From Nitrospirota bacterium (lineage in GTDB: Bacteria > Nitrospirota > UBA9217), in contig CAWBNQ010000003.1 of assembly GCA_963790205.1 (NCBI GenBank), positions 928,001 to 992,000 of the forward strand: DNA of 64,000 bases, in the 5' to 3' direction. This document shows, one piece after another, positions 1-45,806 of this stretch. A program made the position numbers and the translations under genes. Position 1 is the first letter of the stretch; every line of letters starts with the position of its first letter. A model generated the notes under the pieces. That model made no database searches, had not been told where the DNA came from, and saw only the letters and a list, made by a program, of their open reading frames with translations.

Positions 1-1040
1 CCGATCTCGAGCAGGATATGAGGGACCTGGTCGGTCGTTGCCTGGATCACGGAATGTTCGTTGCTCTCGATGAGCGTCTGGCTCGGCAACAGCCTGCGGA
101 TCTCTTCCGCCATGACGTCCGGGTTCTGCGGCGGCATGATCGAACCGTACGTTTCGTGTTTTGCCTTTCGAATAAAAGCCGCGATGCTGGGTACCTCTGT
201 TTTGTCGCGATGCTCCAGAATATAGGTGCGCAGCCGCAGGTACGCAGTCATGTCGTCATCCCGATCGAAGGCCTGCAGCTTCGTGATGGGTACAAGGTCG
301 CCGACGCGCACCTGGATGATCTTGCGGCTCTTGTTGAACAGTTCGTTCGGCAGCATGGCCGTCCGAAGAACAGGATGCACCATGCCCGCCATATGAAAGG
401 CCGCACTGTTCGTCCCCTGGAAGAACACCGGGAGCACCGGCGCCCCGGTCTTCCGGATAATGCGCGCAATGCTCGGGCTCCAGGCGGGATCGGTGATCGT
501 GCCTTTCCGGGCATCGAAGTGAGAGACCGCGCCGGCGGGGAATACCACGAGCATGCCGCCGTCCTTCACCCACTGAATGGATTCTCTGACCGGCCTGATA
601 TTGTCGCGGACCGAGGTTTTCCCCTGGAAGGGGTTCACGGTGATCAGCAAGTCCCGTATTTCGGGTATCGCGTTCAGCAAATAATTGGCCATGAACTTTA
701 CATCGCAGCGCATCGAGCGGAGGACCGATGCGAGGATGACGGTTTCGATGCCCCCGAAGGGATGGTTTGCCACAACGATCACGGGACCCCTGGGAATCAT
801 GATACGGGAAAGGTCCGTTTCCGGCACATCGTATGAAACGCCCAGTTGTTCCAGGACCTTGTCCGGGAAGGGCCGGTTGTCATGCAGCCGGCTGACGTCA
901 TCGTAGAGGCGGTTCATCCGGGGAAAGTCGAGGACATGCTCGAGCGGTCCCTTGAACAGGGAGAACAGTTTGTTTTGCAGCGGGTCTTTAAAGGTCATGT
1001 TCAGGTTGAATATCCGGTTCGACTGAGCCTGGTTCATCAT
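1..1040 (-). CDS. Lysophospholipid acyltransferase fused to a probable C-terminal GNAT domain (OlsF-like ornithine lipid synthase); 3' end runs off the window
   Basis: Not in ORF track. Manual translation MMNQAQSNRIF... stays open to the edge, with acyltransferase motifs VANHPFGGIE and VFPAG and ending ...ILLEIG (start of GNAT part in such fusions). RBS AAGGAGG. Confidence 0.8.
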   Translation of the reverse strand, partial: MMNQAQSNRIFNLNMTFKDPLQNKLFSLFKGPLEHVLDFPRMNRLYDDVSRLHDNRPFPDKVLEQLGVSYDVPETDLSRIMIPRGPVIVVANHPFGGIETVILASVLRSMRCDVKFMANYLLNAIPEIRDLLITVNPFQGKTSVRDNIRPVRESIQWVKDGGMLVVFPAGAVSHFDARKGTITDPAWSPSIARIIRKTGAPVLPVFFQGTNSAAFHMAGMVHPVLRTAMLPNELFNKSRKIIQVRVGDLVPITKLQAFDRDDDMTAYLRLRTYILEHRDKTEVPSIAAFIRKAKHETYGSIMPPQNPDVMAEEIRRLLPSQTLIESNEHSVIQATTDQVPHILLEI

Positions 1041-1049
1041 GCCTCCTTG

Positions 1050-1110
1050 TATTCTGAACTTTGCACTCTGAACTCTGAACTACAAACTTTGAACTCCGAA
1101 CTCTGAACCG
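1050..1110. repeat. Degenerate heptamer tandem repeat (CTCTGAA-like)
   Basis: ttctgaa ctttgca ctctgaa ctctgaa ctacaaa ctttgaa ctccgaa ctctgaa. Confidence 0.9.
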
Positions 1111-2349
1111 TTACGCAACGCGGGCGCGAATGCTGTCCGTGATGCGATAGCCCCAGGACCATACGCCGGTGTCCGGGCAGGGCGACAGCCGGGAATCCCT
1201 TCCTATCACATACCGGTTCCCCCGCCAGACCACCGTTGAACTCAAAAGCGGCACGAACCACAGCATTCCGATGATAATGTCCTTGACCGGAACAAGGAAA
1301 TAAACGAGGGGCGATTGTTTGTGAAGATATGTGCGCGCTGCCGAGGCTTCGATCGCTCTTCCGAGCAGGGAATCGCCAAGGACCTTTATGAGTCCTGTGA
1401 GGGCCGCAAAGGAGAGCGTTTCGCGCGACGGGCCCTTGAGCAGGACCGGCAAGGTTGCCATGAATACCGGATTGGCAAGCAGTTCGGACAGATATTTCGC
1501 TCCGCCGATCTTCCACCGGAGCTTGCCCCATCGCGTGTGGCGGTTCAAAAATCGCCTGATGCCCCAGTACTCATTGACATTGCTGACCAGGTAGCTTGAA
1601 AGAACGACTTTTTTCCCGCTCCGCTGCATCTCCCTGCCGATGATGAAATCCTCGGCCAGGATGTCCTTGAAGGCGGCCAGCCCTCCCAGCTTCTCCAGGT
1701 CTTCTTTTTTCATGAGCATAGACTTCCCGATGACGCAGGGCATGCCCAGGAAGCGGTCGAGAAAGCTGACGCTCCCGAGGATGAAGGAATTTAAGTGAAG
1801 ATTTTCGAGGGTGGCGCCGATGCTGCGGCCGCCTGCGCCGCGGATCACATTGCTGACGAGGCCGATTGCCGGGTCGTGCGCATGGCGCGTGATCTCGCTC
1901 AGATAGTTTTCATCGACCATGACGTTGCTGTCGCTGATCAGAACAAAGGGATGGCGGGCCTTCCGGTATGCGGGTATGAGGTTGTTCACCTTGGGGTTGA
2001 GCCCGACCGCGCACCGCTCCACAACGATGGTAATGTTTTTGTCGGGAAACCTGTCCTGTACCTTTTTAGCCACTTTGTACGCGGGGTCGTTATGGTCCTG
2101 GAGGGAGAACAGGATCTCATATTCAGGATAATTCTGGGTGCAGAAGCTCGCGAGGTTGTCGAAAAGGTTGTCGTCAAGGCCCCGTAACGGCTTGAGGATC
2201 GAGACGGGCGGAAGTGCGGGTCCCCGGGCCGGAATAAAATCGGGGGATTTCCGTTTTTTCGCGATGAGCGACCAGGCTGCTCCCGCCTGGAGCAGGTAGA
2301 GCACGGTCCCCACGATCGAGATCGCCGCGCATATGCCGAAGAGTGTCAT
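1111..2349 (-). CDS. Ceramide-glucosyltransferase-like GT21/HpnI-family glycosyltransferase
   Basis: N-terminal TM, ILKPLRG, NPKVNNL, ISDSN, LAEDF, RHTRW, C-terminal TMs and VVWRG. Confidence 0.85.
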   Translation of the reverse strand: MTLFGICAAISIVGTVLYLLQAGAAWSLIAKKRKSPDFIPARGPALPPVSILKPLRGLDDNLFDNLASFCTQNYPEYEILFSLQDHNDPAYKVAKKVQDRFPDKNITIVVERCAVGLNPKVNNLIPAYRKARHPFVLISDSNVMVDENYLSEITRHAHDPAIGLVSNVIRGAGGRSIGATLENLHLNSFILGSVSFLDRFLGMPCVIGKSMLMKKEDLEKLGGLAAFKDILAEDFIIGREMQRSGKKVVLSSYLVSNVNEYWGIRRFLNRHTRWGKLRWKIGGAKYLSELLANPVFMATLPVLLKGPSRETLSFAALTGLIKVLGDSLLGRAIEASAARTYLHKQSPLVYFLVPVKDIIIGMLWFVPLLSSTVVWRGNRYVIGRDSRLSPCPDTGVWSWGYRITDSIRARVA

Positions 2350-2399
2350 GTGATCCCTCCTTTTTGGTGATGCCTGTTTGTCGAAGTATTCGTCATGCT

Positions 2400-3092
2400 C
2401 TAATTCCTGAAGAGTGTGATGGCGACGCCCTTATTGTGTCTGATGCACTGCTTCACCGAGTCGACGTTCTTTTCGCAGTTGAGCAGCGTTTTCCATGAGT
2501 AGAGATGCCGGGCCTGGTGAAAATCGCTGTTTGCGATGTAGGGATATTTTTTCAGGCTGATCACGTTGAATACATCGTCCCGGTTCGCTATTTCCCAGGC
2601 GTCGATGTATTTCGCGTATTTGTCCCGGTTGTTCCAGAGAAAGAGCGTGTCCTTATTCACGAGGTCGGGCGTGTGATGGGGATGGCAGGCAACGGTCAGG
2701 GCATTTTGATTCTTTGCCTCGAGAAAAATTTCTTCGTAGTCCATGCAGGCGGGAATGAATTCTTTGATGTCGAGAAGAAGGATATGGGCTGATTTATTCT
2801 TGGAGAGATAGTTTTTGCTGATTTCCACGCCCGGGATCACGAGCATCTCATATTTTTCCCAGGCCCGTTTTGCTTCCTCTTTGATGGAGTTGAAATATTC
2901 GTCAAAATTATCCCCCCGGACCGACAGATTGAACTGCCTGGCGAATTTGCCGATCGAGTTGTCGCCGCTCACGACATGGTCCGTAACGGCGATGACATCG
3001 AATCCGGCCTGGCCGAAAAGATCGACGGTGTCCCTCATCTCAAGCGAGCCGTCCGAGAAATTTGTGTGGATATGAAAGTCACACAGCATCAT
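2400..3092 (-). CDS. PHP-domain phosphoesterase
   Basis: DFHIHT..SDG, TDH, GVE, HPH, NSDFH metal ligands. Confidence 0.85.
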   Translation of the reverse strand: MMLCDFHIHTNFSDGSLEMRDTVDLFGQAGFDVIAVTDHVVSGDNSIGKFARQFNLSVRGDNFDEYFNSIKEEAKRAWEKYEMLVIPGVEISKNYLSKNKSAHILLLDIKEFIPACMDYEEIFLEAKNQNALTVACHPHHTPDLVNKDTLFLWNNRDKYAKYIDAWEIANRDDVFNVISLKKYPYIANSDFHQARHLYSWKTLLNCEKNVDSVKQCIRHNKGVAITLFRN

Positions 3093-3115
3093 TGACGGGA
3101 ATCATACGTTTTTTC

Positions 3116-3159
3116 TATTACGGGAGTATTACGGGAATATTAAGTTTCTGTTACGGAAA
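3116..3159 (-). promoter_or_regulatory. Pho-box-like 4x11-bp direct repeat; -10 TATGAT at 3101-3106
   Basis: + strand tattacgggag tattacgggaa tattaagtttc tgttacggaaa, 9 nt from the -10. Confidence 0.85.
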
Positions 3160-3183: not shown

Positions 3184-3216
3184 AAAGAAAGGGTGGGGCA
3201 GTTTCCTGCCCCACCC
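3184..3216 (-). terminator. Intrinsic terminator after the porin gene
   Basis: gggtggggcag-tttc-ctgccccaccc hairpin with U-rich tail on - strand. Confidence 0.8.
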
Positions 3217-3308: not shown

Positions 3309-4703
3309 TTAGAACTTGAAGGTCAGGACGCCCTGGGCGCCCATGACCTTATCGGCGCTCGTATTCACGCCGGCAACAGCCGTGGGGGAGTCATAGGCCT
3401 CGCCGGGCTTGAAGTAGCCGAGGGTCCAGTTCCAGGAGAGGTTGTCATACATCTGCCAATTGACCTTCACGTCCACCTCGGCCCCGAGCTTTCTCGATGT
3501 GGCAGGCGTTGCGCCGTCCGACAATACCGCTTTGTTGAGCGCTACCGCCTGGACCGCCTGGAGATACCACAGGTCAACGCCGACGTTCAGGCCCTTGGCT
3601 GCGGCCACCATCGCGCCGACGTTGAGCGCCGTGGTGTTGGCAAAGCCCGTGTGCGTTTTTCCGGCGGCCGTGCTGACCTTGTACTCATACAGAAAAGAGT
3701 AGTGGGGATCGGCATCCATGAAGTTTACGAATTGACTATAATCATTCTGGTTCAGTTTTGCCCCGGTGCCGCGTCCAGCGGTGAAGTTGATGGTGGCGGG
3801 GTCCATCGCCACTTTACCCTCGATCACGACCTGGTTGCCCTTGAACTTTGCGTCGCCGCTCGGTCCGCCGAGCGATGGATTCGTCACCAGGTTCGCATCC
3901 TTCGCTTTGCCGGCCTGGAGGTCGGCTTCGGCCTTGAGGCCGAGAGGGCCGAACTTGCCGTTCAAGTTCAGTCCGAGGTTGTATATCTGCGTTTCGGGAG
4001 TTGCGGTTGACGGGATGGGGTTCTTGGCGAGCCCTATCGCGTTCTTACGGTCTTTCACCAACGAAAGGTCCGCGCCGACCGTCACGGCATCATTCAGCTT
4101 CAGCACATCGAGGAGCGCATAGGCATCGACGTCGTCTGCCTTACCGGGGTCTCCTTCGCCGACCTTAATGTCCGCAAATGCCGCAGTGTTGCCGCCGGTC
4201 ACATTCGCGACCACCCAGGCATCATCGCCGTACTTCATGTTGCGCAGGAACCAGCCGTTGCCGAGCTGCAGGAGCTGATGGCCGGCGTTCACATTGATCG
4301 GGAGGCCGGGAAGATTGAAGTTGATCCACGCCTCGCGGACGTCGAGCGATACCGGTTTTGCCGATCCCGTGCCGTTATTCCCGCCCCAGTCTTTTGTCGT
4401 TGTCTGGCCGTTGCCCTGCGGCGCCTCGAGCCTGCCCCAGTCGTCCCAGTCGTTCTCGATGGAGATCCTTCCCTTTACATCGTTTCCGGCCTTTGCGTCC
4501 ACCGTGAGCCGGACCCTCTCCTGGGTGTCTCTTGTCGTGCCGTTGTCGCCGGTAAAATCACTGGGATCGGCCTTCGTGTTCATGAAGTCCCTGCTCCGGA
4601 TGTCCAGGCTGCCGCTTACGGTCACGTCCGCGGCAAAGGCCGCGGCGCTGAAACACGTCAGGGCCGCAACTGAGAGTACCACAACTAACTTCTTCATCAT
4701 CAT
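3309..4703 (-). CDS. Outer-membrane beta-barrel porin
   Basis: Signal peptide (AAAFA/AD), amphipathic beta strands, REAW motif, C-terminal ...GVLTFKF. Confidence 0.8.
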   Translation of the reverse strand: MMMKKLVVVLSVAALTCFSAAAFAADVTVSGSLDIRSRDFMNTKADPSDFTGDNGTTRDTQERVRLTVDAKAGNDVKGRISIENDWDDWGRLEAPQGNGQTTTKDWGGNNGTGSAKPVSLDVREAWINFNLPGLPINVNAGHQLLQLGNGWFLRNMKYGDDAWVVANVTGGNTAAFADIKVGEGDPGKADDVDAYALLDVLKLNDAVTVGADLSLVKDRKNAIGLAKNPIPSTATPETQIYNLGLNLNGKFGPLGLKAEADLQAGKAKDANLVTNPSLGGPSGDAKFKGNQVVIEGKVAMDPATINFTAGRGTGAKLNQNDYSQFVNFMDADPHYSFLYEYKVSTAAGKTHTGFANTTALNVGAMVAAAKGLNVGVDLWYLQAVQAVALNKAVLSDGATPATSRKLGAEVDVKVNWQMYDNLSWNWTLGYFKPGEAYDSPTAVAGVNTSADKVMGAQGVLTFKF

Positions 4704-4825: not shown

Positions 4826-4869
4826 TGTTACAGAAATATTACGAAAGTATTAAGTTTCTGTTACATAAT
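4826..4869 (-). promoter_or_regulatory. Pho-box-like 4x11-bp repeat; -10 TATGCT at 4811-4816
   Basis: tgttacagaaa tattacgaaag tattaagtttc tgttacataat. Confidence 0.85.
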
Positions 4870-5109: not shown

Positions 5110-6501
5110 TCATATCGGCAACAGTTTCAGATTAAATCCCCGCTCGATAAGCCAGGTAAAACCCAGCATGAAAATAACCAACGACACTCCGAAGGTCACT
5201 TTTCTGAATTCGATCTTATTTTTCAAAAGGTGCAAGACAGGCAGCATGATCAGGAATATTATTACTTGTCCGAGCTCCACGCCCAGGTTGAAGGAAACTA
5301 CCGATACGAGGAGGTTTGCTTTTCCGGCAATCAACTCCTGGAGAACGCTCGCGAAGCCGAAGCCGTGGACCAGCCCGAAGACAAAAGTCACGAGCCAGCG
5401 ATAATTCACTTTTTTCTTGAACAGGTTTTCAAGTGCGACGAAACAAATGGAAAAAGCTATTACCGATTCCACCACCCTGGAGTTCAAACTGACGACCTGC
5501 ATTGCCGCCAGGAGCAGGGTAATGCTATGCGCTATGGTAAACGCGGTTATTATCTTCAGAACTTCCTTGATAGACAGGCCGATCACAATGAGCGCCAGCA
5601 GAAATGTTATATGATCATATCCTGTCAGAATATGCTCGATGCCGAGCACTATGAATTCTCTTATATTTGCCCATAGAGACCTTTTTGCAGGGTTAAGTGA
5701 TAGAGAACCGTTCTCATTACCTTCGGGAGGGGGTTTGCTCGCAGAATCTGCCGATGGGGTGAACATCTCAGTAGGCAAGTTTTTCATGCCGCCGTTCAGC
5801 GCTTTTGTTTTTTTATTCAGCGGAACTCTTGCAGTATTTTTTCGTACTGCGGTATCCTTAATGCTGTCTGAACTGCCGCTTACAACGGTATTTCCGGTTT
5901 TGTGCCCTTCAGCAGGCACAGATGCAGGACCGTTAACGGAGAATTCCCATACCGGCGCGTTATGATCAAAAGTGGTCTGCATCGCAGGCGGGGAAAAATC
6001 AAAAACTTTTTGCAGGGCGTCTCCGGTAGCATCGGACAAATATCCATAGGCGAGGTTCACGTGCGCATTGTTCGTCTCTTCAAACAATAAGGTGTAATCG
6101 ATCTTGACCGGGTTTACAGGGTCATTAAAGCTGATATCATCTGCTGACAGCCATATGGTATATATGTTGCCGTTTCTGACTACCTTGTTTACCTTTACAG
6201 GATACGTTTTGCCATCGACTGTTATGGAAAGTTTTTTGTCTATATAAGGCTGCAGGATATCGGCTCCAATGTGCTGCAGTTGCTCATCGGAAAGTGCATC
6301 AGGGTCATAATGTCCTTCCTTTATTCCTTTTATTTCGGCCAATAAGGACGGGCCAAGATCTATGTTGCCGATAATAGTGTTTTTGCCAAAACACCACCTG
6401 GAGCCGCCCATGGGCAGGTTGTGAGCAGAAACAGGAACAGTGATTAAAAGGAATAAACCTGTTATGACGAATAAAAATAATTTTCTGAATGGCATAAACA
6501 C
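5110..6501 (-). CDS. HupE/UreJ-family membrane protein with N-terminal periplasmic domain
   Basis: Signal ..VSA/H, GIEHILTGYDH, AFTIAHSITL, FGLVHGFGFA, FNLGVELGQ. Confidence 0.85.
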   Translation of the reverse strand: MFMPFRKLFLFVITGLFLLITVPVSAHNLPMGGSRWCFGKNTIIGNIDLGPSLLAEIKGIKEGHYDPDALSDEQLQHIGADILQPYIDKKLSITVDGKTYPVKVNKVVRNGNIYTIWLSADDISFNDPVNPVKIDYTLLFEETNNAHVNLAYGYLSDATGDALQKVFDFSPPAMQTTFDHNAPVWEFSVNGPASVPAEGHKTGNTVVSGSSDSIKDTAVRKNTARVPLNKKTKALNGGMKNLPTEMFTPSADSASKPPPEGNENGSLSLNPAKRSLWANIREFIVLGIEHILTGYDHITFLLALIVIGLSIKEVLKIITAFTIAHSITLLLAAMQVVSLNSRVVESVIAFSICFVALENLFKKKVNYRWLVTFVFGLVHGFGFASVLQELIAGKANLLVSVVSFNLGVELGQVIIFLIMLPVLHLLKNKIEFRKVTFGVSLVIFMLGFTWLIERGFNLKLLPI

Positions 6502-6523
6502 AAAAAGGCCTCCTTTTCAGCTC

Positions 6524-7141
6524 CTAAGAGTCGATTCCCGAATTCAGGACACGGCCTTCCTCGGATGATAACGAAACGTGCTTCTCTTTGGCCCGCAGGA
6601 ACACGATCAGGCTGGATACGGCCAGTAAAAAGCTTAACATACTCATAGGCGGCAAGCCTCCATTCCACTTCTGGACATTCAGCGTATCCTTGTAGCCCAT
6701 CGCAAAAAGATGGCCGGCGACGAAGGTACACGCCAGGACCGTCAGCGTCCGTCGAACGGCCGGCTTTATTCCGGTCGCGTGCAGGCGCCAGAAACAATAG
6801 ACAGCCAGCACTCCCATAAGCAGCACCAGTTCTCCGGTCAGGCTCATCTTATCGCCGTCAAAGAAATTGGCGTAATAACCCTGCGAGAGGATCCCGAGCG
6901 ACAGAAAGATGTGGACGAACACCAGCTGCGAACACGCGTTGGTCCAGAAACGGACCTTGTCCTGCTCCGCGTGCATGAAGCCGAGGGACGCCATAAGCAG
7001 CGACTCTACCGCTGTCATGCATATCGCTTTGTTCATTATATAGACCGGCAGGTGAATGAGAGCAACATGGCCGAACCCGGCATACCGAATGACCGCGTAC
7101 ACAAGCGTAAACAGAAATGCTGTCAGAAATTGTTTGACCAT
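6524..7141 (-). CDS. Ferric-reductase-like (STEAP/MsrQ-type) transmembrane protein
   Basis: About 6 TMs; LPVYIMNKA, TM His in FVHIFLS and AGHLFAMG, C-terminal LPP. Confidence 0.6.
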   Translation of the reverse strand: MVKQFLTAFLFTLVYAVIRYAGFGHVALIHLPVYIMNKAICMTAVESLLMASLGFMHAEQDKVRFWTNACSQLVFVHIFLSLGILSQGYYANFFDGDKMSLTGELVLLMGVLAVYCFWRLHATGIKPAVRRTLTVLACTFVAGHLFAMGYKDTLNVQKWNGGLPPMSMLSFLLAVSSLIVFLRAKEKHVSLSSEEGRVLNSGIDS

Positions 7142-7144
7142 TCT

Positions 7145-8332
7145 TCAGTCCTCCTTGGTTTGTCGTTTTTCTAAGATCTCCGGTGACGCCGCCGCGTCCA
7201 CGAACGGGCACTCCGGATCGGAAGCGTAGAAGTCGCCGTCGACGAACCCGGCCACGGCGCGGCAGCCTCCCTTGCAGATCTCGAGATAATCGCACGACCG
7301 GCAGGGCTCCGGGGCCCGGTCGGTCCAACTGCGCAAGCGAGAGAGATGTTCCGAACCGCTCCACAGCCGGGGCAGTTTGAAAATGCTCTCCTCACCGGAT
7401 AAGAAGGAACAGCCCGCAAACCTGCCGTCCGAGCGGACCCCCAGCAGGACGTTGCCGGCCTCGCAGCCGTAGGCTGAGAACTGTTCCATCATATTTTTGT
7501 CCGGCCTGTGCCAGCAGAACATCGGGACAAAGGAGCAGTCGATCTTGGCCGGGACTCCGTATTCCATGGAGAGGCGCCTGATCGTCGGATAGAATTCCCG
7601 GTTCTGCAGCGGCGTTAATCGCCTTTCGAAATAGTCCAGCATTCCCCGTCCCGAGGGCTTCAGCCTCAGGAACTCCACATCGGCAAGTCTCCGCTCCCCG
7701 GCAAAGACAAACACCCCGGGCAAATGATCGAAGCTCTGACGGGTCACGACACAGTTCAGACCGACGTTGACGCCCGCCTTCAGAAGCATATCCATACCCC
7801 GTATTGCCGCTGCGAGAGCAGCGGAACTCCGCCCGGCTACCTCGAAACCCGCAGTGCCATCGATGCTGACGTTGACCTGGCCGAAAATTCGGCACTTTGC
7901 AGCGGTCTCTCTGGTCATCAGGAGCCCGTTGGTGGTCAGGTTCGGAACGATGCCGCGGGCGCGCACATAAGCGGCCAACTCAAAAAAGTCGGGGCGCTCC
8001 AGCGCCTCTCCGCCTCCCAGTGCCATATGGAACACACCCATCCCGGCCAGGAGGTCGACGGCCTTGCGAAACTCTTCAGACGACAGCTCTCGCGCATCTC
8101 TTTCCCCTGAATCCATATAGCAGTGCCCGCACCGGAGGGAACAGGCATTGGTCACCGAAAAATGGACTTCCAGCGGAGCGGAGAGAAGAGCTGTTTCCGG
8201 CATTTCCCACAACGGGCTGTGCTCATGGACCAGGCGGCGCATAAAGTCCCGGTCCACGTGCACCAGCATCGGAGGATTTTCCAGGGCCAGGATCCCTCCA
8301 AACGATTCAAACCGATACTTCATAACGCTCAT
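7145..8332 (-). CDS. Radical SAM/SPASM-domain protein (MftC/PqqE-like)
   Basis: CSLRCGHC, GGGE, TTNG, SIDG; SPASM CEAG..GC..CRSC....CKGGC..CP. Confidence 0.92.
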   Translation of the reverse strand: MSVMKYRFESFGGILALENPPMLVHVDRDFMRRLVHEHSPLWEMPETALLSAPLEVHFSVTNACSLRCGHCYMDSGERDARELSSEEFRKAVDLLAGMGVFHMALGGGEALERPDFFELAAYVRARGIVPNLTTNGLLMTRETAAKCRIFGQVNVSIDGTAGFEVAGRSSAALAAAIRGMDMLLKAGVNVGLNCVVTRQSFDHLPGVFVFAGERRLADVEFLRLKPSGRGMLDYFERRLTPLQNREFYPTIRRLSMEYGVPAKIDCSFVPMFCWHRPDKNMMEQFSAYGCEAGNVLLGVRSDGRFAGCSFLSGEESIFKLPRLWSGSEHLSRLRSWTDRAPEPCRSCDYLEICKGGCRAVAGFVDGDFYASDPECPFVDAAASPEILEKRQTKED

Positions 8333-8544
8333 CCCTTCTCTTCCCCCTGACTGAGTACGGGCATTTCTTTTAATTCTTCCGGTCGCCCGTGCTCATGGAC
8401 CTTTGCCGCGCTAAGGACCGCAGCAAGAGTGTTGAAAAGGACCGTCATGGCCGCTCCAGCGGTGAAGAAGGCTATTACATCTACGCCGATACTGCTTGAG
8501 TTCGGGTTGTAGCCGGTCTTGATCTTCAGAATTCGTCCTTTCAT
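8329..8544 (-). CDS. 71-aa peptide with GYNPNSSS motif and TM helix; candidate radical SAM substrate
   Basis: Purine-rich RBS; stop overlaps the rSAM ATG by 4 nt; basic N-terminus, hydrophobic centre. Confidence 0.75.
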   Translation of the reverse strand: MKGRILKIKTGYNPNSSSIGVDVIAFFTAGAAMTVLFNTLAAVLSAAKVHEHGRPEELKEMPVLSQGEEKG

Positions 8545-8635
8545 TTCCCTGCCTTCCTGCTTGGTTTTCTCTTTGTCACGACAGCTTTGCAGATCCTTTC
8601 CTTGTTCTCTCCTGGATAAAGTGTCCGCTGGTCCA

Positions 8636-9763
8636 TTACGGAAGCCTCCCTTCTTCGGCCCAGCGCTGATACTGGGCAGAAAAGACGTCTATGATCTGAG
8701 GTCCGTTCGGCTGGTGGATAATGAAGAGGTAGAAGACGGCCGTAGTCATCAACAGGGTGAGGACAGGACTGAGCCAGCGCAGAGCTCGAGGCCGGGTCTG
8801 CCAGAACTCCCCCCTTGTCAGAAGCAACAGCCAGAAGAGGGTTGTCAGGTTGAGGCCGGCCGCGATGTAGACCACAGTGTCAGGGATTATGATTGGATAG
8901 CCCGTGGTCTCCATGGAATAGAAAGTCGGCATTCTGATTGCGGTCAGCAGCACCCAGAGGAGAACCAATATCAGAAAAGTCCTGATCGAGGCCTGGGTAA
9001 GCCGCTTCCAGGGTTTCATCAGCAGGGCGGCAGCCCAGAGCATGACTACGACTCCCCACGCGACCCATCCCCAGGCCGATGTTTCTTTCCAGTAGCGGCT
9101 GGCCGTTTCGTAGGCCTCCTGGTCGCTTGTGGAGAGTTTTTTCCCGCCGTTCCCTGAAAGGGCCTCAAAGGCGAGATAGCTTTGCCTGCGCTTGTCCATG
9201 CGAGCATAGGCATATCCCAGTTCCCTCTGGACCTCTGCCTTCAAAAGAAAATCAGGGTGGTCCTTCAGCAACGCTTCGAACTTCTTCACCATGATTTCAT
9301 CGCCCTGATCGGCGAACAGAATCGCCTGATAGGTCTTGAAGGCCGCCTCCTGCTGTATCAGTTTTTCGAGGGAGGCCAGCTTCTCCTGGTAAAAGGAAAC
9401 CTGCCGGGGGGAGGCGTATTTCTCCAGATATTTCCGATCCCACTTGATCGCCTTCTTTATATCGACAATGTTGTCTTCATACAGGGTCCCCAGCATCTGC
9501 ACGGCGTAGCGGGCCGCCTCGCTTTCAGGATGCTTCCCGGCGATTTCCAGGTCGATGGCAGCTGCGTCGGCATAGCGGCCGTTGATATAGGCATGCTGGG
9601 CCTTTTGCCTCAGCTCGTTCACTGCCGGGCTGTCCTGGGCCGCAAATCCGGCGATCGGCAGCAAGAACAGGCCCCCAAAGAGCGTAAGAATAAGCAATGG
9701 AATGAGCTTGGTGCGCCTGATGGCGACAAGCTTTAGCACCAGCTTGTCCGTTATGGTTGCCAT
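8636..9763 (-). CDS. TPR-like periplasmic domain with C-terminal 4-TM anchor
   Basis: Signal peptide, helical repeats (AQHAYINGRYADA, ELGYAYARM), hydrophobic C-terminus; RBS GGAGG. Confidence 0.75.
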   Translation of the reverse strand: MATITDKLVLKLVAIRRTKLIPLLILTLFGGLFLLPIAGFAAQDSPAVNELRQKAQHAYINGRYADAAAIDLEIAGKHPESEAARYAVQMLGTLYEDNIVDIKKAIKWDRKYLEKYASPRQVSFYQEKLASLEKLIQQEAAFKTYQAILFADQGDEIMVKKFEALLKDHPDFLLKAEVQRELGYAYARMDKRRQSYLAFEALSGNGGKKLSTSDQEAYETASRYWKETSAWGWVAWGVVVMLWAAALLMKPWKRLTQASIRTFLILVLLWVLLTAIRMPTFYSMETTGYPIIIPDTVVYIAAGLNLTTLFWLLLLTRGEFWQTRPRALRWLSPVLTLLMTTAVFYLFIIHQPNGPQIIDVFSAQYQRWAEEGRLP

Positions 9764-9927: not shown

Positions 9928-10115
9928 CTATTCCTGCAATGTCACAGGGGCAAAAGGTAAGGCTGGTATTATTCGAATTAATGCTTTCAGTGGTCCGATT
10001 CATGCTGAACTGCAGCGGAATGACGATCTCGTCACCGGCTGCCAGGCCGTTGGCCGTAGCCCTTATCATCGGTTCGCCATTGTTCGAGCCGGTTGCATTG
10101 AGGCCGATGTTCTGG
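9928..10115 (-). pseudogene. Diverged, out-of-frame duplicate of the 3' end of the metallophosphatase gene
   Basis: Encodes QNIGLNATGSNNGEPMIR...TF(A)PVTLQE* versus in-frame QNTGLITDVTLVNATGSNNGEPMIR...TFTPVVLQE. Confidence 0.8.
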
Positions 10116-11801
10116 TTCCTGCAATACCACAGGCGTAAAGGTGATTTCGGTGTTATTCGGGTTGCTGAACGAGAGCGGAACGACAATCGAGTCCCCCGCG
10201 TCCAACCCGGTATGCTTAACCCTTATCATCGGTTCGCCATTATTCGAACCGGTCGCATTGACCAGCGTGACGTCCGTGATGAGGCCGGTGTTCTGGGCGA
10301 TCTTTGAGACAAGTTGCGGGGTGGTGGTGCTGTATTCGTTATCTGCGCTGCCGATTCCCTGGAGGTTGACAATACCGTCCAGGACAACGTGGATATTACC
10401 GGTAAGAGCTGGGCCGTTATTCGTGATCTCCAGGTTGCATCTGTACAGCTTGGTCGTAGGATTGTAGGTCATGTGGGTGGTTTTTACGCCGACCTGCGAT
10501 GAGACGTCGGTGAAGTGATTGAGAACGATCGTCTCGATCGGTGAAAGGGTCAGCGCCGACGACGGCTGAATCGCCGTTGTGCTCGCGTTGTTGACCTGGT
10601 AGGCGGTCATGGTGAGGGTCTTTCCTTCTACGTCAAAGGTCATGAACTCCATGGCCGGCCAGGCGGTGATGACGTGCGGAAAATTGCCCATATTGGTCAT
10701 GTCGGGCTGATAAACAGGCGCGCCGCCGCCGCCGCTGGTGATGTGCGGGACATTCAGGGCAATCTGGTCTCCGTTTGCCTGGGCGAGGGTATAAGCCCCG
10801 GTGCGGGCATAGTTGTGGCTGTGGCCGGCATAGACCAGGTCCACATTATACTGGGTAATGAGAGGTTCAAGTGCCCTCACTTTGAGGTTGTCGCCGTCTT
10901 TGCCTGCGGAATACGACGGCTCGTGGTACACGAGTATCTTCCACGGCTTGGTGGTCGTGGCGAGGTCGTTGACAAGCCAGTTGTACTGGTCGGAGCCGGG
11001 AGCAAAGCTTGAGTACTCGTCAACAACGGTGAAGTGGACCGGGCCGTAATCGAAGGACCAGTAGAGGTTATTGTAATAAGGATTGCCGCTGGCATCTGTT
11101 GTAGGAGCAGCTGTTTTAGAAGTCATATTCGTGTACGGAAAGGGAAAGTACTTCGGGAAAGTGGCGCTATACCCTGAAGCGTTATCATGGTTGCCCTTGC
11201 ACCCGTCGATGGGCGAATTCGCCGTGAACGTGACGATGTCCGTCTTGGTCGGGTCGAACCACTGGGAGGTCCAGTAGCTTTCGCCGTCGGTGCTTACCCA
11301 GTCACCGTTGTGAATAGTAAGGCGCTGATAATCCTCGTTGCCGGGCTGTGAATAGAAGGAGCGCATCGCCTGCATGACGTTATCCAGGGCAAACGGTTGG
11401 CTTCTTGAGTCTCCCATGGCGAGGAACCGTATCGAAGTGGCATTGTCCTCGGGCGCGGTAATGAACGATCCGGTGCCGTAGACGGCGCTGCTGGTCTGGT
11501 CAGCCACATGGTAGTAGTATTTCGTATTCGGCGTCAGTCCGGTGATCGTGTACCCGTGCTGCCGGTCGCCGAACTCGGGCGCCGTTACCGTCCCCATGCT
11601 GAAGATCGTGTCGGTGCCCCAGCTGACGATGTTCGTCTCGCCTGCGGTGTCGTCCTGCCAGACCACCTCCATCTGTGTATTCTGCCCCGGGTAGATCAGG
11701 TAGGGATGTTTCAGAATGCCGGCGAAAGCCGCCGTGCTGAACACGGCAAAGGCCAGCACAAAAACTAAACCGGTCAAAGCTTTTTTCGTCATGGTATTCA
11801 T
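10032..11801 (-). CDS. Secreted purple-acid-phosphatase-like metallophosphoesterase with FN3-like N-domain
   Basis: Start MNTMTKK after GGAG; signal AAFA/G; GLTPNTKYYY; GDSR, NGDWV, GNHD, YHEP, GHSH. Confidence 0.88.
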   Translation of the reverse strand: MNTMTKKALTGLVFVLAFAVFSTAAFAGILKHPYLIYPGQNTQMEVVWQDDTAGETNIVSWGTDTIFSMGTVTAPEFGDRQHGYTITGLTPNTKYYYHVADQTSSAVYGTGSFITAPEDNATSIRFLAMGDSRSQPFALDNVMQAMRSFYSQPGNEDYQRLTIHNGDWVSTDGESYWTSQWFDPTKTDIVTFTANSPIDGCKGNHDNASGYSATFPKYFPFPYTNMTSKTAAPTTDASGNPYYNNLYWSFDYGPVHFTVVDEYSSFAPGSDQYNWLVNDLATTTKPWKILVYHEPSYSAGKDGDNLKVRALEPLITQYNVDLVYAGHSHNYARTGAYTLAQANGDQIALNVPHITSGGGGAPVYQPDMTNMGNFPHVITAWPAMEFMTFDVEGKTLTMTAYQVNNASTTAIQPSSALTLSPIETIVLNHFTDVSSQVGVKTTHMTYNPTTKLYRCNLEITNNGPALTGNIHVVLDGIVNLQGIGSADNEYSTTTPQLVSKIAQNTGLITDVTLVNATGSNNGEPMIRVKHTGLDAGDSIVVPLSFSNPNNTEITFTPVVLQEPEHRPQCNRLEQWRTDDKGYGQRPGSR

Positions 11802-11958
11802 CGCTTCTCCTTTTTGCAAAAAGTTATGCTGCTGTTTGTGACACTTCTTAACCTTAGTATTGCCTGATGAATGATTATTCCACCTCCTTTCACGGTGCTG
11901 TGCAGCAGTCAAAAAAACAACTATTGCCGATATGGGTTCATTGCTCTATTGATCAGGT

Positions 11959-12627
11959 TTACGGGTTTGGCGACTCGCTATCCAGGTTCGCCTCGCTCAT
12001 GTCCGTCCCGTCCGCGTTCGCCCCACTCATGTTCGCCTTGCTCAAATCCGCCCCGCTCAAGTTAGCCTTTCTCAAGTCCGCCCCGTTGAGGTTAGCCTTG
12101 CTCAGGTTCGCCTTGCTCAGGTCCGCCCCGCTCAAGTTAGCCTTGCTCAAGTTCGCCTTGCTCAGGTCCGCCTTGGTCAGGTCCGCCCTGCTCAGGTTCG
12201 CTTTGCTCAAGTTCGCCTTATTCAGTTTTGACCTGCTCAGATCCACCCCGCTCAGGTCTTTCTCTTCCAAATTAATGCCGTTCAGGTCTGCCCCATTCAG
12301 ATCCGCCCCGCTCAGGTTCGCCCCGCTCAGATCCGTCCCGACCAGGTTCGCCCCGCCCAGGTCCGTCTCAGTCAGGTTCGCCCCGCTCAAGTCTGCCCCG
12401 CTTAGGTTCGCCCCGTTCAGGTTCGCCCCGCTCAAATCCGCCCCGTTCAGGTCCCGCCCCTCCAGGTTCATCCCGTTCAGGTCCACCCCACTCAGGTCAC
12501 ACTGGGGACATTGATTGGTTGCCCGTAATCTATCCAAATCAGCCTGCTCGAAGCCATACACGACGCTGCCCTTCAGAAACACGCAAAGGATGATTATCCC
12601 CAGCAGTGCTGCGGTCCTTCTTTTCAT
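11959..12627 (-). CDS. Secreted pentapeptide-repeat protein
   Basis: Signal peptide, CPQC, many A[DN]LSx repeats. Confidence 0.92.
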   Translation of the reverse strand: MKRRTAALLGIIILCVFLKGSVVYGFEQADLDRLRATNQCPQCDLSGVDLNGMNLEGRDLNGADLSGANLNGANLSGADLSGANLTETDLGGANLVGTDLSGANLSGADLNGADLNGINLEEKDLSGVDLSRSKLNKANLSKANLSRADLTKADLSKANLSKANLSGADLSKANLSKANLNGADLRKANLSGADLSKANMSGANADGTDMSEANLDSESPNP

Positions 12628-28322: not shown

Positions 28323-29585
28323 TCACATTTTTGACCTGCTCTGGATCAAGTAGGCATAATAGGTAGCGGCGTACGTCGGGGTGCGTTCGAGCGTTTCGAA
28401 GTCCACACGGTAGAGCCCGAACCGGGCGTCCAGCCCCTGGAGCCATTCGTAGTTGTCGATCAAGGTCCAGTAGAAATATCCCCTCACATCGAGCCCGTCA
28501 CGGATGCATTTCTCGACGATATCCACGTGCTTCTTCATGTATTTCACTTTTTCCTCGGTATCATGCGTGGCAATCCCGTTCTCGGTTATCATGAGGGGGA
28601 GGTTGAGCCGTGACGCGTACCGGACGACCTTTTCCAGTCCGCGCGGATGGATCTCCCATCCCATTTTGGTCAGACCGTGACCGTCCACGTCCGCGTACCG
28701 GATCTCGACGCCCATTTTCTTGAACGGATTGAACCGGAGGTGGATGCGCGTATAGTAATTGATGCCGAAAAAGTCGAGTTTGTTCTTGATGGGCACCTCG
28801 ATCTCCACGGGCTTCGAGAAGGGGAACTTGACGATGAAGACCCCGGTCTGGAAAGCATTAATGATCGAATGATTATAAAAGTAGTTTGCCGTCTTTTTCA
28901 GGAGGCGGTCCAGGGGGTTCCATCTTTTCCACGGCGCAAAAGCGGACATGTTATGCGCGAGGCTCACCTGGGCGTCGGGAACATAGCGATGGATGATGTC
29001 GTATGCTTTCCCGTGGCAGGTGAAGATGTTTTTGAGGGCCATGAGCGAGCGGGGGACGTCCCTGAGGCCGGGAGGCGTGCAGCCTTCCAGATATCCGCCG
29101 AGCAGGATGACGTAGGGCTCGTTGAACGTGAGCCAGTAGCGTACCCCTTTGAGGGAGAAGACCAGCATCTCCGCAAAGCGGAGAAATTTTTCGATCGACG
29201 CTGTCCGGTGCCAGGGAGAACGCTCCATGAACCAGCGGGGATGGGTGAAGTGGTGGAGGGTGAGCATCGGCTCTATATGGTAGCTCCGCAGGATGTCGAT
29301 GATCTCCTGGTAATGCGCAATGGCCTCGTGGTCCCAGGTGTCTTCCTGCGGCTGGATCCTGCTCCACTCGATGGAAAAACGGTAGGAGTTGACCCCCAGC
29401 TCCTTCAGGAGCTTGAGGTCCTCGCGGAACAGGCGGTAGTGGTCCGTTATCTCCGGCTTATTGCCTATCAACGGGTCCCAGGTCGCCCAGTCCGCATGAA
29501 GAGAGCCTTCGAGTTGAAAGGCAGATGTTGCTACGCCCCACTGAAAATCTTCGGGAAAGACCTTTTTCTTATTCCGCTCCTTCAT
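28323..29585 (-). CDS. Glycoside hydrolase family 1 (beta-glucosidase-like)
   Basis: WGVATSAFQLEG, RFSIEWSRI, TFNEP, INYY, ITENG, DNYEW. Confidence 0.93.
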   Translation of the reverse strand: MKERNKKKVFPEDFQWGVATSAFQLEGSLHADWATWDPLIGNKPEITDHYRLFREDLKLLKELGVNSYRFSIEWSRIQPQEDTWDHEAIAHYQEIIDILRSYHIEPMLTLHHFTHPRWFMERSPWHRTASIEKFLRFAEMLVFSLKGVRYWLTFNEPYVILLGGYLEGCTPPGLRDVPRSLMALKNIFTCHGKAYDIIHRYVPDAQVSLAHNMSAFAPWKRWNPLDRLLKKTANYFYNHSIINAFQTGVFIVKFPFSKPVEIEVPIKNKLDFFGINYYTRIHLRFNPFKKMGVEIRYADVDGHGLTKMGWEIHPRGLEKVVRYASRLNLPLMITENGIATHDTEEKVKYMKKHVDIVEKCIRDGLDVRGYFYWTLIDNYEWLQGLDARFGLYRVDFETLERTPTYAATYYAYLIQSRSKM

Positions 29586-29608
29586 GAAGTCTCTCTGTTC
29601 TCCCGTTC

Positions 29609-29713
29609 CTATTTCCAGTGTATTACCATGAAAAGAAGCCCCGCCATCAAAACCACGAGCAGGAGTATCTCTTCGCTTTTTTTTAAGTTGTTCTTATTCA
29701 TGCTGTTATCCAT
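29609..29713 (-). CDS. 34-aa single-pass membrane protein
   Basis: MDNSMNKNNLKKSEEILLLVVLMAGLLFMVIHWK*; overlaps psiE stop; RBS GAGG. Confidence 0.5.
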   Translation of the reverse strand: MDNSMNKNNLKKSEEILLLVVLMAGLLFMVIHWK

Positions 29714-30131
29714 GTTTTGCCTCTTCCGTCTCTAAGAATTTTTCCGGTGAAAATACGACCGCGAGCGTCCTGAGCACTCCGATCACGAGAATCAGCGTTG
29801 CAAGCGCGATGATCATTTTCGCCTCCAGGCTGTGCTGGTAGAGCCCGATCATGATCTCGCGGAGTACAAAGACCAAGGCGGCATCGGTAATGAACGTTAT
29901 TTTAAGCCGGTGCACGGTAAAGTACTCTATGACGCTCCGAAGCAGTTCTATGACGATGAACATCGAAAGGATGTTGGTCACCATCATGTCGAAGGCCGCC
30001 GCGATGGTCTGGCTCCCGAAAACAGCGCGCAGGTCAAGCAGGACCCGCGCGATCCCCATCATCAGGGCGATGATCACGATCGGGATCATGAACTTGATCA
30101 TGCTGTCGACGATCCGGGTAAAGTATTTCAT
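29706..30131 (-). CDS. psiE: Phosphate-starvation-inducible PsiE-family protein
   Basis: 4 TMs; IL..FI.IELLRS..EY, D.AL..VLRE. Confidence 0.8.
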   Translation of the reverse strand: MKYFTRIVDSMIKFMIPIVIIALMMGIARVLLDLRAVFGSQTIAAAFDMMVTNILSMFIVIELLRSVIEYFTVHRLKITFITDAALVFVLREIMIGLYQHSLEAKMIIALATLILVIGVLRTLAVVFSPEKFLETEEAKHG

Positions 30132-43380: not shown

Positions 43381-45127
43381 TAAAAATCCTCACCCTCGTC
43401 CCTTTGCCCGGCGTGCTCTCTATCTGCATGTCCCAGCCGTGCGCCTTCACCAGATGCTTCACGATCGCCAGGCCGAGGCCCGTGCCGCCCATGCTTCGCG
43501 ACCGGCCGGGGTCTACGCGGTAGAACCGTTCGCCGATCCGCGGCAGGTGCTTCTGCCTGATGCCGATGCCGGTGTCTTCCACGAATAAATAAGTCGTACC
43601 GTTCTCCTCGGCATCGCCGAACTTCACCCCGCCTTTTTCCGTGAACTTTATCGCGTTGTCAACGAGGTTGGTCAGGATCTGGATAAGCCGATCCCGGTCC
43701 GCTGCAACGGTCCGCGGCGTCGGGAGTATCTGCGCCTCTATCGTCAGGTTCTTTTCAGCGGCCTTGCTGCGCAACAGCGTAAGGACATGGTCGGCGACCT
43801 CCTGGAGATCGACGGGCGACTTTTCCACCGTTATCACGCCCAGTTCGATCTTCGAGATGGTCATAAGATCGTCAATGAGGCTGTTGATCCGTTCGCTGTT
43901 CGCCTTGATGGTCCGCAGGAAGGTGACGGCATGGTCGCGGTCCTCAAGGGCGCCCTCGAGCAGGGTCTCGGCAAATCCGGTGATAGCCGTGATCGGCGTC
44001 TTGAGCTCATGGGAGATGTTGGCGACGAAATCTTTTCTCGTTTGTTCAAGTTTTTTGAGTTGCGTGATGTCGTGGAAGATGGCGACGAACCCCGACAGTT
44101 CGCGTTCGTTGTAAAAGAGCGGGGAGACCTGGACCACGCAGTATTGCTCCAGGGGGGAGTCGAGCTTTATCTCGGCGCTCGCGCTCTTCTCCTCCCGCCG
44201 GACCGCTTCCATCAGCGCCAGGAACTCGCTGTTCCGGACGACCTCGATGAACGGCCTTCCCTGGAGCGCGGTCTCGCCGAACAGGTTCCTGGCCGCCCGG
44301 CTCGACAGACGGACCGTATTGTTTGCATCGATTATGAAGAGGGCGTCGGGAATGCTCCTGAGGACCGTGTTCAGCCGATTGTGCTCCTCCTCATGGGCTG
44401 CGATGCTGTTCTTCAGTTCCCCGGACATGGCGTTGAGGCTTTCGGCGATCTCATCGAACTCGCCCGCCCGCTCAAGGAACAGTTTTCTGCCGACTTCCCC
44501 CCGTGCAAGCGCTTTGGAAAAGTCCCTTATCTGCCGCGTCAATCTTCGGATCCGTTCTATTTGCCACAGGGAGAAGACGCCTGTCGCGAGCAGGATGAGC
44601 GTGACGACAAGGATGATCCTGACCCTGAGCAGGTTGATCGCCGCATCGACGTCCTTGAGCGGCTTGCTTAAACGGATAAAGCCTTTGGAGTGCGCTCCGC
44701 CGTCGACGTGTATCGCCACGTAGAGGAAATCGTACTTCAGGGTATCGCTGAAACGGATTGCCATGCCGGTCCCGTTCAGCGCGGCCTGCTGTATCTCCTG
44801 ACGATGGCCGTGGTTCTCCATGCGGGTCGAATCGGTTTCCGAGTCCCCGAGGACCCTTCCGTCGGGCGCGATGACCGTGACCCTTGCACCGGTTGTTTCC
44901 TTGAGCTGTCTGCAAAGGCCGTCGAGCGGGGACGATGCCTCGAATGGTATGTCGGCGGAGATGAGTTTTGCCTGGACCGTGAGATTGTCGTGCAGGTCGT
45001 TGATGTAATTTTCCCTGACCGCATCGGTAATGGAGAGCTCGATAATGATCACCGCCAGGAGCAGAATGAGCGAATAGGTGATGAATATCCGTCGGAAGAT
45101 GCCGCGCTTCACGGAATTATTCGACAT
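43370..45127 (-). CDS. phoR: Phosphate regulon sensor histidine kinase
   Basis: TM, ENH..R.EI periplasmic domain, TM, HAMP, PAS, DFVANISHELKTP, NL.DNA.K, RFYRVD..RSR..GGTGLGL. Confidence 0.9.
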   Translation of the reverse strand: MSNNSVKRGIFRRIFITYSLILLLAVIIIELSITDAVRENYINDLHDNLTVQAKLISADIPFEASSPLDGLCRQLKETTGARVTVIAPDGRVLGDSETDSTRMENHGHRQEIQQAALNGTGMAIRFSDTLKYDFLYVAIHVDGGAHSKGFIRLSKPLKDVDAAINLLRVRIILVVTLILLATGVFSLWQIERIRRLTRQIRDFSKALARGEVGRKLFLERAGEFDEIAESLNAMSGELKNSIAAHEEEHNRLNTVLRSIPDALFIIDANNTVRLSSRAARNLFGETALQGRPFIEVVRNSEFLALMEAVRREEKSASAEIKLDSPLEQYCVVQVSPLFYNERELSGFVAIFHDITQLKKLEQTRKDFVANISHELKTPITAITGFAETLLEGALEDRDHAVTFLRTIKANSERINSLIDDLMTISKIELGVITVEKSPVDLQEVADHVLTLLRSKAAEKNLTIEAQILPTPRTVAADRDRLIQILTNLVDNAIKFTEKGGVKFGDAEENGTTYLFVEDTGIGIRQKHLPRIGERFYRVDPGRSRSMGGTGLGLAIVKHLVKAHGWDMQIESTPGKGTRVRIFMEV

Positions 45128-45806
45128 AATACCCCACGCCCCGTCTTGTTTTGATATGCACGGGGTCCGATGGATCGTCTTCAATTTGCGTGCGCAATCT
45201 TCTGATGTGCACGTCCACGGTCCTCGGCTCGACGAAGGACTCGTCCTTCCATACGGCATCGAGGAGTTGATCGCGGCTGAAGACCCTGCCTTTTCTCTCA
45301 ACGAGAAACAGGAGCAGTTTGAACTCCGTCGCGCTGAGATGCACGGAGGTGTCCTTCTTGGTCACGGTGAAGGTCTCCCGGTCGATGCGGAGCTCCCCGA
45401 GGCGGATGACCTTTTCTTTGGCCGCGAGCGCTCCCGTGCGCCGCAGGACCGTGTTCACCCGGGCGGCAAGTTCCTTCGGGCTGAAGGGTTTGGTCATGTA
45501 GTCGTCGGCGCCGGTCTCCAGGCCGCGTATCTTGTCCGCGACCTCGCCTTTGGCGGTCAGCATGATGATGGGAATGGTCTCTGTTCTCGGATTGCTCCTG
45601 AGCATGCGGCAGAGCTCAACGCCCTGGATGCCGGGGAGCATAAGGTCAAGGATGATGAGGTTATACCCGTCCTTGCGGACCTTCTCGAGCGCATCCTCCC
45701 CGGTGGAGGCTGAGGAGACTTTAAAGCCTTCTTTCCTGAGATTGTAGGAAACAAGCTCCACCAGATCGGGTTCGTCGTCTACAACGAGTATTTTTATCGT
45801 TTCCAT
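45117..45806 (-). CDS. phoB: Phosphate regulon response regulator (OmpR/PhoB family)
   Basis: VDDE, LDLMLP, MLTAK, GADDY.TKPFS, RTVDVHIRRLR; coupled to phoR. Confidence 0.88.
   Translation of the reverse strand: METIKILVVDDEPDLVELVSYNLRKEGFKVSSASTGEDALEKVRKDGYNLIILDLMLPGIQGVELCRMLRSNPRTETIPIIMLTAKGEVADKIRGLETGADDYMTKPFSPKELAARVNTVLRRTGALAAKEKVIRLGELRIDRETFTVTKKDTSVHLSATEFKLLLFLVERKGRVFSRDQLLDAVWKDESFVEPRTVDVHIRRLRTQIEDDPSDPVHIKTRRGVGYYVE

Follow-up and report, generated by a model that had tools for sequence, protein, structure and literature searches.

The closest described relatives of the locus reported here are the plcP-pgt and plcP-agt operons of Alphaproteobacteria, SAR11 and Burkholderia, in which a small metallophosphoesterase gene lies directly before a lipid glycosyltransferase gene. 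Under Pho control, Agt or Pgt receives diacylglycerol (DAG) from PlcP (PMC4796936, PMC3972451). Pgt of Agrobacterium and Mesorhizobium is a processive GT21-family enzyme with a Pho box that makes a glycolipid under phosphate starvation (PMC3972451, PMC8231724); ceramide is accepted as well, although DAG is preferred (PMC3972451). Operons of plcP with a GT21 gene exist on Gemmobacter and Pannonibacter plasmids and as types 3 and 5 of PMC4796936. The comparable enzyme for aminolipids is OlsF of Serratia, Vibrio (VC0489) and Desulfovibrio (Dde_3661), a fusion of an O-acyltransferase and a GNAT domain. Induction by PhoBR is known for the Vibrio enzyme (PMC12971839), and ornithine lipid and glycolipid are missing from D. 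alaskensis mutants in OlsF and Agt (PMC5193443). Here we describe a 64,000-nucleotide stretch of a Nitrospirota genome (the window; C3:928001-992000 of a 4.34-Mb host genome that is 98% complete). It encodes a PHP-domain protein (PHP), a GT21 glycosyltransferase and an OlsF-like protein in co-oriented open reading frames (ORFs), all on the minus strand and directly downstream of a four-unit Pho box (Table 1). The ORFs, the domains and the box statistics all bear out this layout, which had been proposed in a sequence-only reading. The locus shares the Pho-box control of the plcP operons and, unlike them, has a PHP barrel, a GT21 of a separate clade, a predicted PHP-GT21 complex, and GH1 and psiE genes as companions. 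Judging from sequence and models, this operon, together with a flippase-like gene at its end, probably remodels membrane lipids, with PHP and GT21 acting as a membrane-bound pair.

We found that the box of the PHP operon scores 29.7 bits and ranks fifth among 8,678,370 genome positions with a matrix trained solely on the pstS and porin promoters. Fourteen positions in the genome reach at least 22 bits, whereas none does in any of three local shuffles, and 16 of the 18 matches of at least 19 bits fall within one 36-kb minus-strand stretch that contains the PHP operon and pstSCAB-phoU. The direct 7-bp repeat units are the same as those in the pstS and porin promoters and are rare elsewhere; they resemble the PhoB consensus (c/t)GT(n)AC validated in D. 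vulgaris (PMC3333781). As read from the sequence, each of the PHP, pstS and porin promoters has a TA-T-xx-T hexamer 9 nt past the last unit. A box followed by such a hexamer is the layout expected where PhoB sites replace the -35 element. A sigma-70 scan detected no promoter at the PHP operon, as expected if the box replaces this element. The mRNA would then be nearly leaderless, and an intrinsic terminator would separate the box from the upstream porin gene and insulate the operon. The PhoB-like regulator encoded at the edge of the Pho island is the likely reader of the box. Among 40 relatives, a two-unit score of at least 16 bits occurs no more than 250 bp from the PHP start in 14 (0/40 coding controls) and within 3.5 kb in 21 (8/40 on the opposite strand). 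It is thus very likely that the PHP operon is under Pho control, and the earlier claim of such control is supported by the box statistics.

The distribution of the module was surveyed in 301 Nitrospirota genomes. A full PHP orthologue is present in 81 of them, a GT21 orthologue in 83, and both in 80. Seventy-nine of the 82 PHP copies lie no more than 700 bp from a GT21 orthologue; the three exceptions are a copy 2.8 kb off, a pair on separate contigs, and a genome with OlsF directly after PHP. When 40 loci chosen from the 82 were read in detail, GT21 was adjacent in all 40, a GH1 gene was found in 31, pstS within the stretch in 20, a full-length OlsF in 7 and the flippase gene in 6. At the family level, OlsF is present in 37 of the 64 genomes and in 33 of the 43 that have PHP. 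The conserved unit is therefore PHP plus GT21, and OlsF is a family-level addition. Thus, the PHP-GT21 core of the three-gene module suggested by the sequence-only reading stands, whereas its OlsF member does not hold across the phylum.

PHP is a putative PHP-fold metallophosphoesterase and belongs to the family of TM0559 (PDB 2ANU), a Thermotoga maritima protein solved by structural genomics (E 1e-64, 44% identity, TM-score 0.9; predicted local distance difference test (pLDDT) of the model, 93). The seven-stranded barrel and the H-H-D-H-E-H-H-D-H ligand set of TM0559-type PHP proteins were confirmed, and all nine metal ligands are present (H7, H9, D14, H39, E90, H103, H137, D190 and H192). 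PHP therefore has this barrel instead of the calcineurin-like (LpxH-related) fold of PlcP. It shares family, fold and metal ligands with TM0559 and, by alignment, differs from it in that PHP has a basic amphipathic helix at residues 46-57 (the lid), whereas TM0559 belongs to a lidless branch with a hydrophilic segment and has no glycosyltransferase partner. No NCBIfam model attains its cut-off on PHP, an ESM Atlas search returned PHP clusters only, and no homologue was present among the plasmids or phages searched. We found no published function for TM0559/2ANU and no paper tying PHP enzymes to lipid remodelling, in a literature search whose coverage left out subscription journals and thesis work on the COG.

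The PHP gene has the context of a plcP gene, adjacent to genes for non-phosphorus lipids under a Pho box. In the host genome, none of the nine PF00149 matches is PlcP-like, and no PlcP came up in a motif scan, with TIGR01854 or with two PlcP queries from plasmids (best E 0.86). A YfcE-like gene near the island was considered as a PlcP candidate and rejected as unrelated to it. The PlcP-type query, checked against the plcP genes of the two plasmid plcP-GT21 operons (32-34% identity, E ~1e-40), detects a gene in 29 of the 301 genomes, and its overlap with the 81 PHP genomes is 0, where 7.8 would be expected if the two were independent. The 29 carriers are 33 minus four weak matches in family f5 (27-34% identity, LpxH-like), none of which has PHP. 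TIGR01854 alone matches 35 genomes, one of which (G114, 32 bits) also has PHP and was missed by the PlcP query. Of the 181 genomes of one Acidobacteriota order, 47 have PHP and none has PlcP, which fits displacement but cannot test exclusion. In the Nitrospirota family f10, a PlcP-type gene adjoins a GT28 gene whose own family forms fusions with PHP in Verrucomicrobia (all 4 loci read, 2 of them confirmed by hidden Markov model), so that one glycosyltransferase family takes either partner. Separately, the PlcP-type genes of family f9 (L175, L176 and L179) adjoin an aminotransferase-like gene and not a glycosyltransferase gene.

Alternatively, PHP might be a phosphatase for soluble substrates that is tethered to the glycosyltransferase and acts on the by-product uridine diphosphate (UDP) or on head-group phosphates such as glycerol phosphate or phosphoethanolamine, with the lipid acceptor coming from elsewhere; its purpose would be relief of inhibition and phosphate recovery. 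The genome's PAP2 and DgkA genes could handle DAG in this case, and it would be clear why PHP has four mutually unrelated UDP-sugar transferases (GT21, GT28, GT2 and GT4) as partners. However, neither the absence of PlcP wherever PHP occurs nor the partnering of GT28 with either PlcP or PHP is explained in this way, nor is the amphipathic lid, and we consider a soluble-substrate phosphatase unlikely.

We then compared PHP copies across lineages, using for the neighbourhoods the best 80 of 581 loci (named loci). Among the 120 longer homologues listed (of 246 found), 117 contain an MGDG-synthase/GT28 domain and, where named, belong to Verrucomicrobiae. Acidobacteriota PHP genes are flanked by GT2 and GT4 genes, and many of the other loci have an uninformative context. 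The lid was counted over all 200 loci as a G[KR]-hydrophobic amphipathic segment after H39. It is present in 50 of 52 GT21-linked, 16 of 16 acidobacterial and 80 of 80 GT28-fused copies, and absent from all 25 Chlorobi and 27 other copies, giving 146/148 in the glycosyltransferase-linked clades versus 0/52. Hydrophobic moment alone separates the Chlorobi copies poorly (0.59 vs 0.63-0.69), but motif and charge do separate them. The lidded group may have a single origin.

Several further arrangements were observed. Acidobacteriota loci L133, L139, L143 and L149 encode, after the lidded PHP, another PHP protein of a different kind (PF13263) as well as two GT4 proteins. Reminiscent of the PHP-GH1 linkage of Nitrospirota, 7 of the 80 GT28-PHP fusion loci (L220, L221, L224, L231, L236, L246 and L247) have a GH1 gene close by, ~32% identical to its Nitrospirota counterpart. 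A fusion of PHP with a receiver and a kinase (P0284) was also found. A PHP-GT21 fusion (P0299) was discounted as evidence, as it is a single member on a short contig and its PHP part ends before the last metal ligands.

A complex model of GT21 with PHP reached a score of 0.76, and the best of 3 controls 0.00. The score mark is attained by 116 of 157 solved complexes and by 2 of 215 mismatched pairs, a calibration that holds roughly for our own alignments. The runs share at least 97% of their contacts, and the partner pLDDT is at least 86. The modelled interface places residues 57-64 and 89-100 of GT21 against residues 25-30, 81-82 and 228-230 of PHP. GT21 interface positions are 79% identical in PHP-linked GT21s (62% overall) and 21% identical in 14 unlinked ones (30% overall); D60, F63, K92, K96, E260 and Y261 are each conserved in 85-100% of the linked proteins versus 0-7% of the 14 unlinked. 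On the PHP side, Q28 is found in 100% of Nitrospirota copies versus 0-19% elsewhere. Sequence searches of the PDB returned relatives of PHP and of GT21 as separate entries only. These results support a binding of PHP to GT21, in which the PHP interface, to judge by the secondary structure, would lie at the barrel base and leave the metal site and the lid free. The docking site at GT21 57-64 adjoins the K53-P54 motif in the model, as might suit a phosphatase acting on UDP or another soluble substrate; on the other hand, it is the barrel base and apparently not the metal face that forms the contact, which speaks against such an enzyme.

Based on these findings, we propose the following mechanism. 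PhoB would switch on the PHP-GT21 pair, and PHP would dock to the cytoplasmic domain of GT21 through its barrel base, leaving helix 46-57 and the metal site free for the membrane. There, PHP would strip the phosphate-containing head from a membrane lipid. PHP is quite possibly a phospholipase C acting on phosphatidylglycerol, phosphatidylethanolamine or a phosphosphingolipid; an activity as phosphatidate phosphatase seems improbable. GT21 would move a hexose from a UDP-sugar onto the freed DAG, possibly also onto ceramide or a diether lipid, and the OlsF-like protein would make a phosphorus-free aminolipid, probably ornithine lipid. The GH1 partner might, speculatively, reverse or extend the glycosylation.

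We then investigated GT21 and its likely acceptor. The protein has PF13506 above the cut-off, an N-terminal membrane anchor and the D/DxD/D/(Q/R)xxRW motifs, with DSN at the DxD position; the motif residues are K53-P54, SDSN139-142, AED232-234 and RHTRW270-274. Its best NCBIfam match is HpnI (TIGR03472; 259.5 bits), and an LPG_synthase_TM gene may also be found next to HpnI genes. These facts would suit an HpnI-like GT21 whose substrate is a hopanoid or a different non-glycerolipid, in a cluster without a lipid-remodelling role. However, the score is under the cut-off of 310, and the 98% complete host genome has no squalene-hopene cyclase. Moreover, the GT21s linked to PHP group in a clade of their own (support 99), outside of which fall the HpnI-like paralogues that several of the same genomes carry separately, and the Pho box and OlsF context indicate remodelling. 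A hopanoid role was rejected on the score, the missing cyclase and the separate clade, in line with the non-hopanoid lipid role claimed earlier, and we regard any HpnI-like activity as very improbable. The tree is a quick version whose references are plasmid-borne plcP-linked GT21s, with characterised Pgt proteins not included.

Against the solved ceramide glucosyltransferase, GT21 scores 152.9 bits (E 1e-43), above a plcP-linked GT21 (120.9) and HpnI (72.9). It shares the CAZy family with Pgt but differs in scoring nearer to the eukaryotic ceramide glucosyltransferase, and orthology to Pgt is not supported. The host genome carries a sphingolipid-type cluster, so that ceramide is a possible acceptor. 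On the Spt-like protein of this cluster, the Spt model reaches 582.8 bits (cut-off 640) and outscores those for BioF and Kbl. The frameshifted GNAT-like gene, which has no model match, is a candidate bCerS. One might therefore assume a glycosphingolipid pathway, in which GT21 is a ceramide glucosyltransferase, PHP frees ceramide from phosphosphingolipids and DAG is no physiological acceptor. Glycosylation of ceramide under phosphate starvation is reported for Caulobacter (PMC6445935), and 66 of the 81 PHP genomes have an Spt-like gene. On the other hand, 59 of the 125 Spt genomes in the phylum lack PHP, and 15 of the 81 PHP genomes gave no Spt match. Rechecking five of these with the protein revealed one broken spt and none in the other four (G069, G050, G057 and G063), of which G069, a single contig that is 98% complete, retains PHP-GT21-OlsF. 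In addition, relatives pair PHP with a DAG-type GT28, and Pgt itself favours DAG. A purely sphingolipid pathway is thus quite unlikely, and the acceptor of GT21 is best read as DAG, or as both DAG and ceramide. The sequence-only reading had suggested that a ceramide-glucosyltransferase-type enzyme makes the glycolipid and, together with PHP, gives an alternative remodelling module. Its lipid role stands, but GT21 is not the novel part, because Pgt already makes a glycolipid under phosphate starvation and plcP-GT21 operons exist.

The OlsF-like protein combines an N-terminal O-acyltransferase domain (PF19576) with a C-terminal GNAT domain (PF13444, residues 349-450). The latter lies in the part of the gene beyond the window, where a GNAT domain had been looked for on the suspicion of an OlsF architecture; both domains were detected. 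NF052615 matches over the full length with 404.4 bits, short of the cut-off of 620 and unlike OlsF proper, and we filed the protein as OlsF-like. Its single domains score better on the glycine-lipid GlsA/GlsB models than on OlsB, so the amino acid substrate is not fixed. OlsF homologues can also use lysine, and GlsBA use glycine, according to PMC12971839. It is very likely that the OlsF-like protein makes an aminolipid, which is likely ornithine lipid.

Several observations weigh against the proposal that PHP and GT21 remodel lipids in the manner of PlcP operons. The exclusion and lid counts rest on few clades whose members are kin and not independent, and the lid group has a support of just 90 in a fast tree. 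The lidless half of the family (Chlorobi, WOR-3, archaea and the TM0559 type) is found in pst operons or by unrelated genes; in WOR-3 and similar genomes, PHP lies inside pstSCAB-phoU-phoBR with no lipid gene. One lidless copy (L100) adjoins a BtaA-like DUF3419 gene, blurring the lid correlation. In 13 Chlorobi loci, a lidless PHP stands next to a calcineurin-like phosphoesterase that is distant kin of PlcP (24-26%). The GT28-fusion loci have no conserved phosphate-regulon neighbours. The PHP interface positions are conserved no more than the rest of the protein (0.77 vs 0.77), and GT21 does not group with the plcP-linked alphaproteobacterial GT21s in the quick tree (~27% identity), which leaves orthology to Pgt unsupported. 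Lastly, the characterised PHP enzymes returned by the scans, all below cut-offs, use soluble or nucleic-acid substrates.

Some of these points also favour a soluble-substrate phosphatase, namely that the named PHP models closest to it are those of nucleotide or RNA enzymes and that lidless relatives occur in pst operons without lipid genes; in addition, phosphatases that free inorganic phosphate from head groups are called unknown in PMC3972451. PHP does not substitute for PlcP throughout its family, since in Chlorobi the lidless copies occur alongside a distant PlcP-like enzyme. Accordingly, the replacement of PlcP by PHP claimed in the sequence-only reading does not hold family-wide, whereas phyletic exclusion, fusion to a DAG glycosyltransferase, the lid and the predicted complex support it indirectly in the lidded branch. 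With its different fold, PHP falls outside the PlcP family, but it would likely work like PlcP. Apart from this question, the phosphoesterase that follows PHP in Chlorobi loci L092-L122 has 360 amino acids and no Pfam or NCBIfam match. It is often followed by an acyltransferase and GNAT pair, forming a candidate phosphate-starvation module.

The coordinates of the module are given in Table 1. The intergenic gaps are 50 bp between PHP and GT21 and 70 bp between GT21 and the OlsF-like gene. The latter gap (1041-1110) is occupied by a degenerate 7-bp tandem repeat of about nine copies; nine similar tracts were matched genome-wide, and these probably form a short intergenic repeat family. Beyond the flippase-like gene, three kinase genes, a receiver protein gene and pstSCAB-phoU follow in the same direction. 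The kinase genes between the lipid genes and pstS (L001:10373-13979) encode a kinase without a phospho-acceptor domain, a PhoB-like receiver-kinase fusion and a third kinase with a CBS-like N-terminus, a label assigned by eye. The psiE-GH1 pair lies ~25 kb from the PHP operon in the host genome and has retained its own box, whereas it is adjacent to PHP in most relatives.

Table 1. Features of the PHP-GT21 module and associated genes; positions are those of the window unless preceded by a contig name
Feature	Coordinates	Strand	Details
Pho-box array	3116..3155	minus	four 7-bp units, 11-bp period
Candidate -10 hexamer	3101..3106	minus	9 nt after last box unit, 8 nt before PHP start
Intrinsic terminator of upstream porin gene	3191..3216	minus	11 pairs, 9 of them G-C; T-rich tail
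PHP	3092-2400	minus	230 aa; PF02811
GT21	2349-1111	minus	412 aa; PF13506, 155 bits
OlsF-like gene, 5' part in window	1..1040	minus	runs 810 nt past window start
OlsF-like gene, full	C3:929040-927190	minus	616 aa; PF19576 N-terminal, PF13444 C-terminal
Flippase-like LPG_synthase_TM gene	C3:927206-926076	same direction	376 aa; overlaps olsF stop; outside window
psiE and GH1 beta-glycosidase	28326..30131	minus	own box at C3:958242; detached module members
PhoB-like response regulator	45126..45797	minus	TIGR02154, 276 bits (cut-off 296); genome's best match
Sphingolipid-type cluster	C5:363928-369057		epimerase/reductase-like, Spt-like, frameshifted GNAT-like, membrane protein, PAP2_3

Other genes around the Pho boxes were also noted. 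The porin-like gene of the Desulfovibrio type upstream of the PHP operon (3309-4703) has its own four-unit Pho box at 4826-4865 and a 60% identical paralogue on contig C6, and it likely encodes a phosphate-starvation porin. A Pho-boxed operon at 5110-9763 encodes a TPR membrane protein, a 71-amino-acid small ORF, a radical SAM/SPASM protein, a membrane protein and a HupE/UreJ-domain protein; it could be a phosphate-regulated system for peptide modification or a metal cofactor. Behind a box at C3:940828, the genes at 10032-12627 encode a purple acid phosphatase-like secreted protein and a pentapeptide-repeat protein. A CDP-diacylglycerol pyrophosphatase gene (PF02611; 15972-16661) with a signal-peptide-like start lies inside the Pho island without a box of at least 19 bits. 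Its product would give phosphatidate, which is relevant if PHP is a phosphatidate phosphatase.

Pho control, glycolipid synthesis by GT21 and OlsF are known already, whereas the literature search turned up no report of the PHP step, the predicted complex or the partner-swapping pattern. We tentatively suggest a second class of intracellular phospholipase C, unrelated to PlcP and made up of the lidded branch of the TM0559/2ANU family. With its glycosyltransferase, it might form a two-enzyme machine for head-group exchange that turns phospholipids and phosphosphingolipids directly into glycolipids, as a complex with GT21 in Nitrospirota and as a fusion with GT28 in Verrucomicrobia. Since plcP is the marker gene of remodelling surveys, lineages with PHP instead would be scored as non-remodellers. 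If the suggestion is correct, it would provide the missing genetic basis of lipid remodelling in anaerobes and soil phyla without PlcP. It would also offer a candidate source for the orphan bacterial glycosyl-diether and glycosyl-ceramide lipids that PMC10667739 ties to Thermodesulfovibrionia in serpentinite fluids. A central step of remodelling would then have a non-homologous enzyme, and the chemistry of PHP enzymes would extend to membrane lipids. Finally, a family with a 20-year-old structure but no assigned activity would gain a function, and the glycolipids of phosphate-poor anoxic habitats would gain testable genes.

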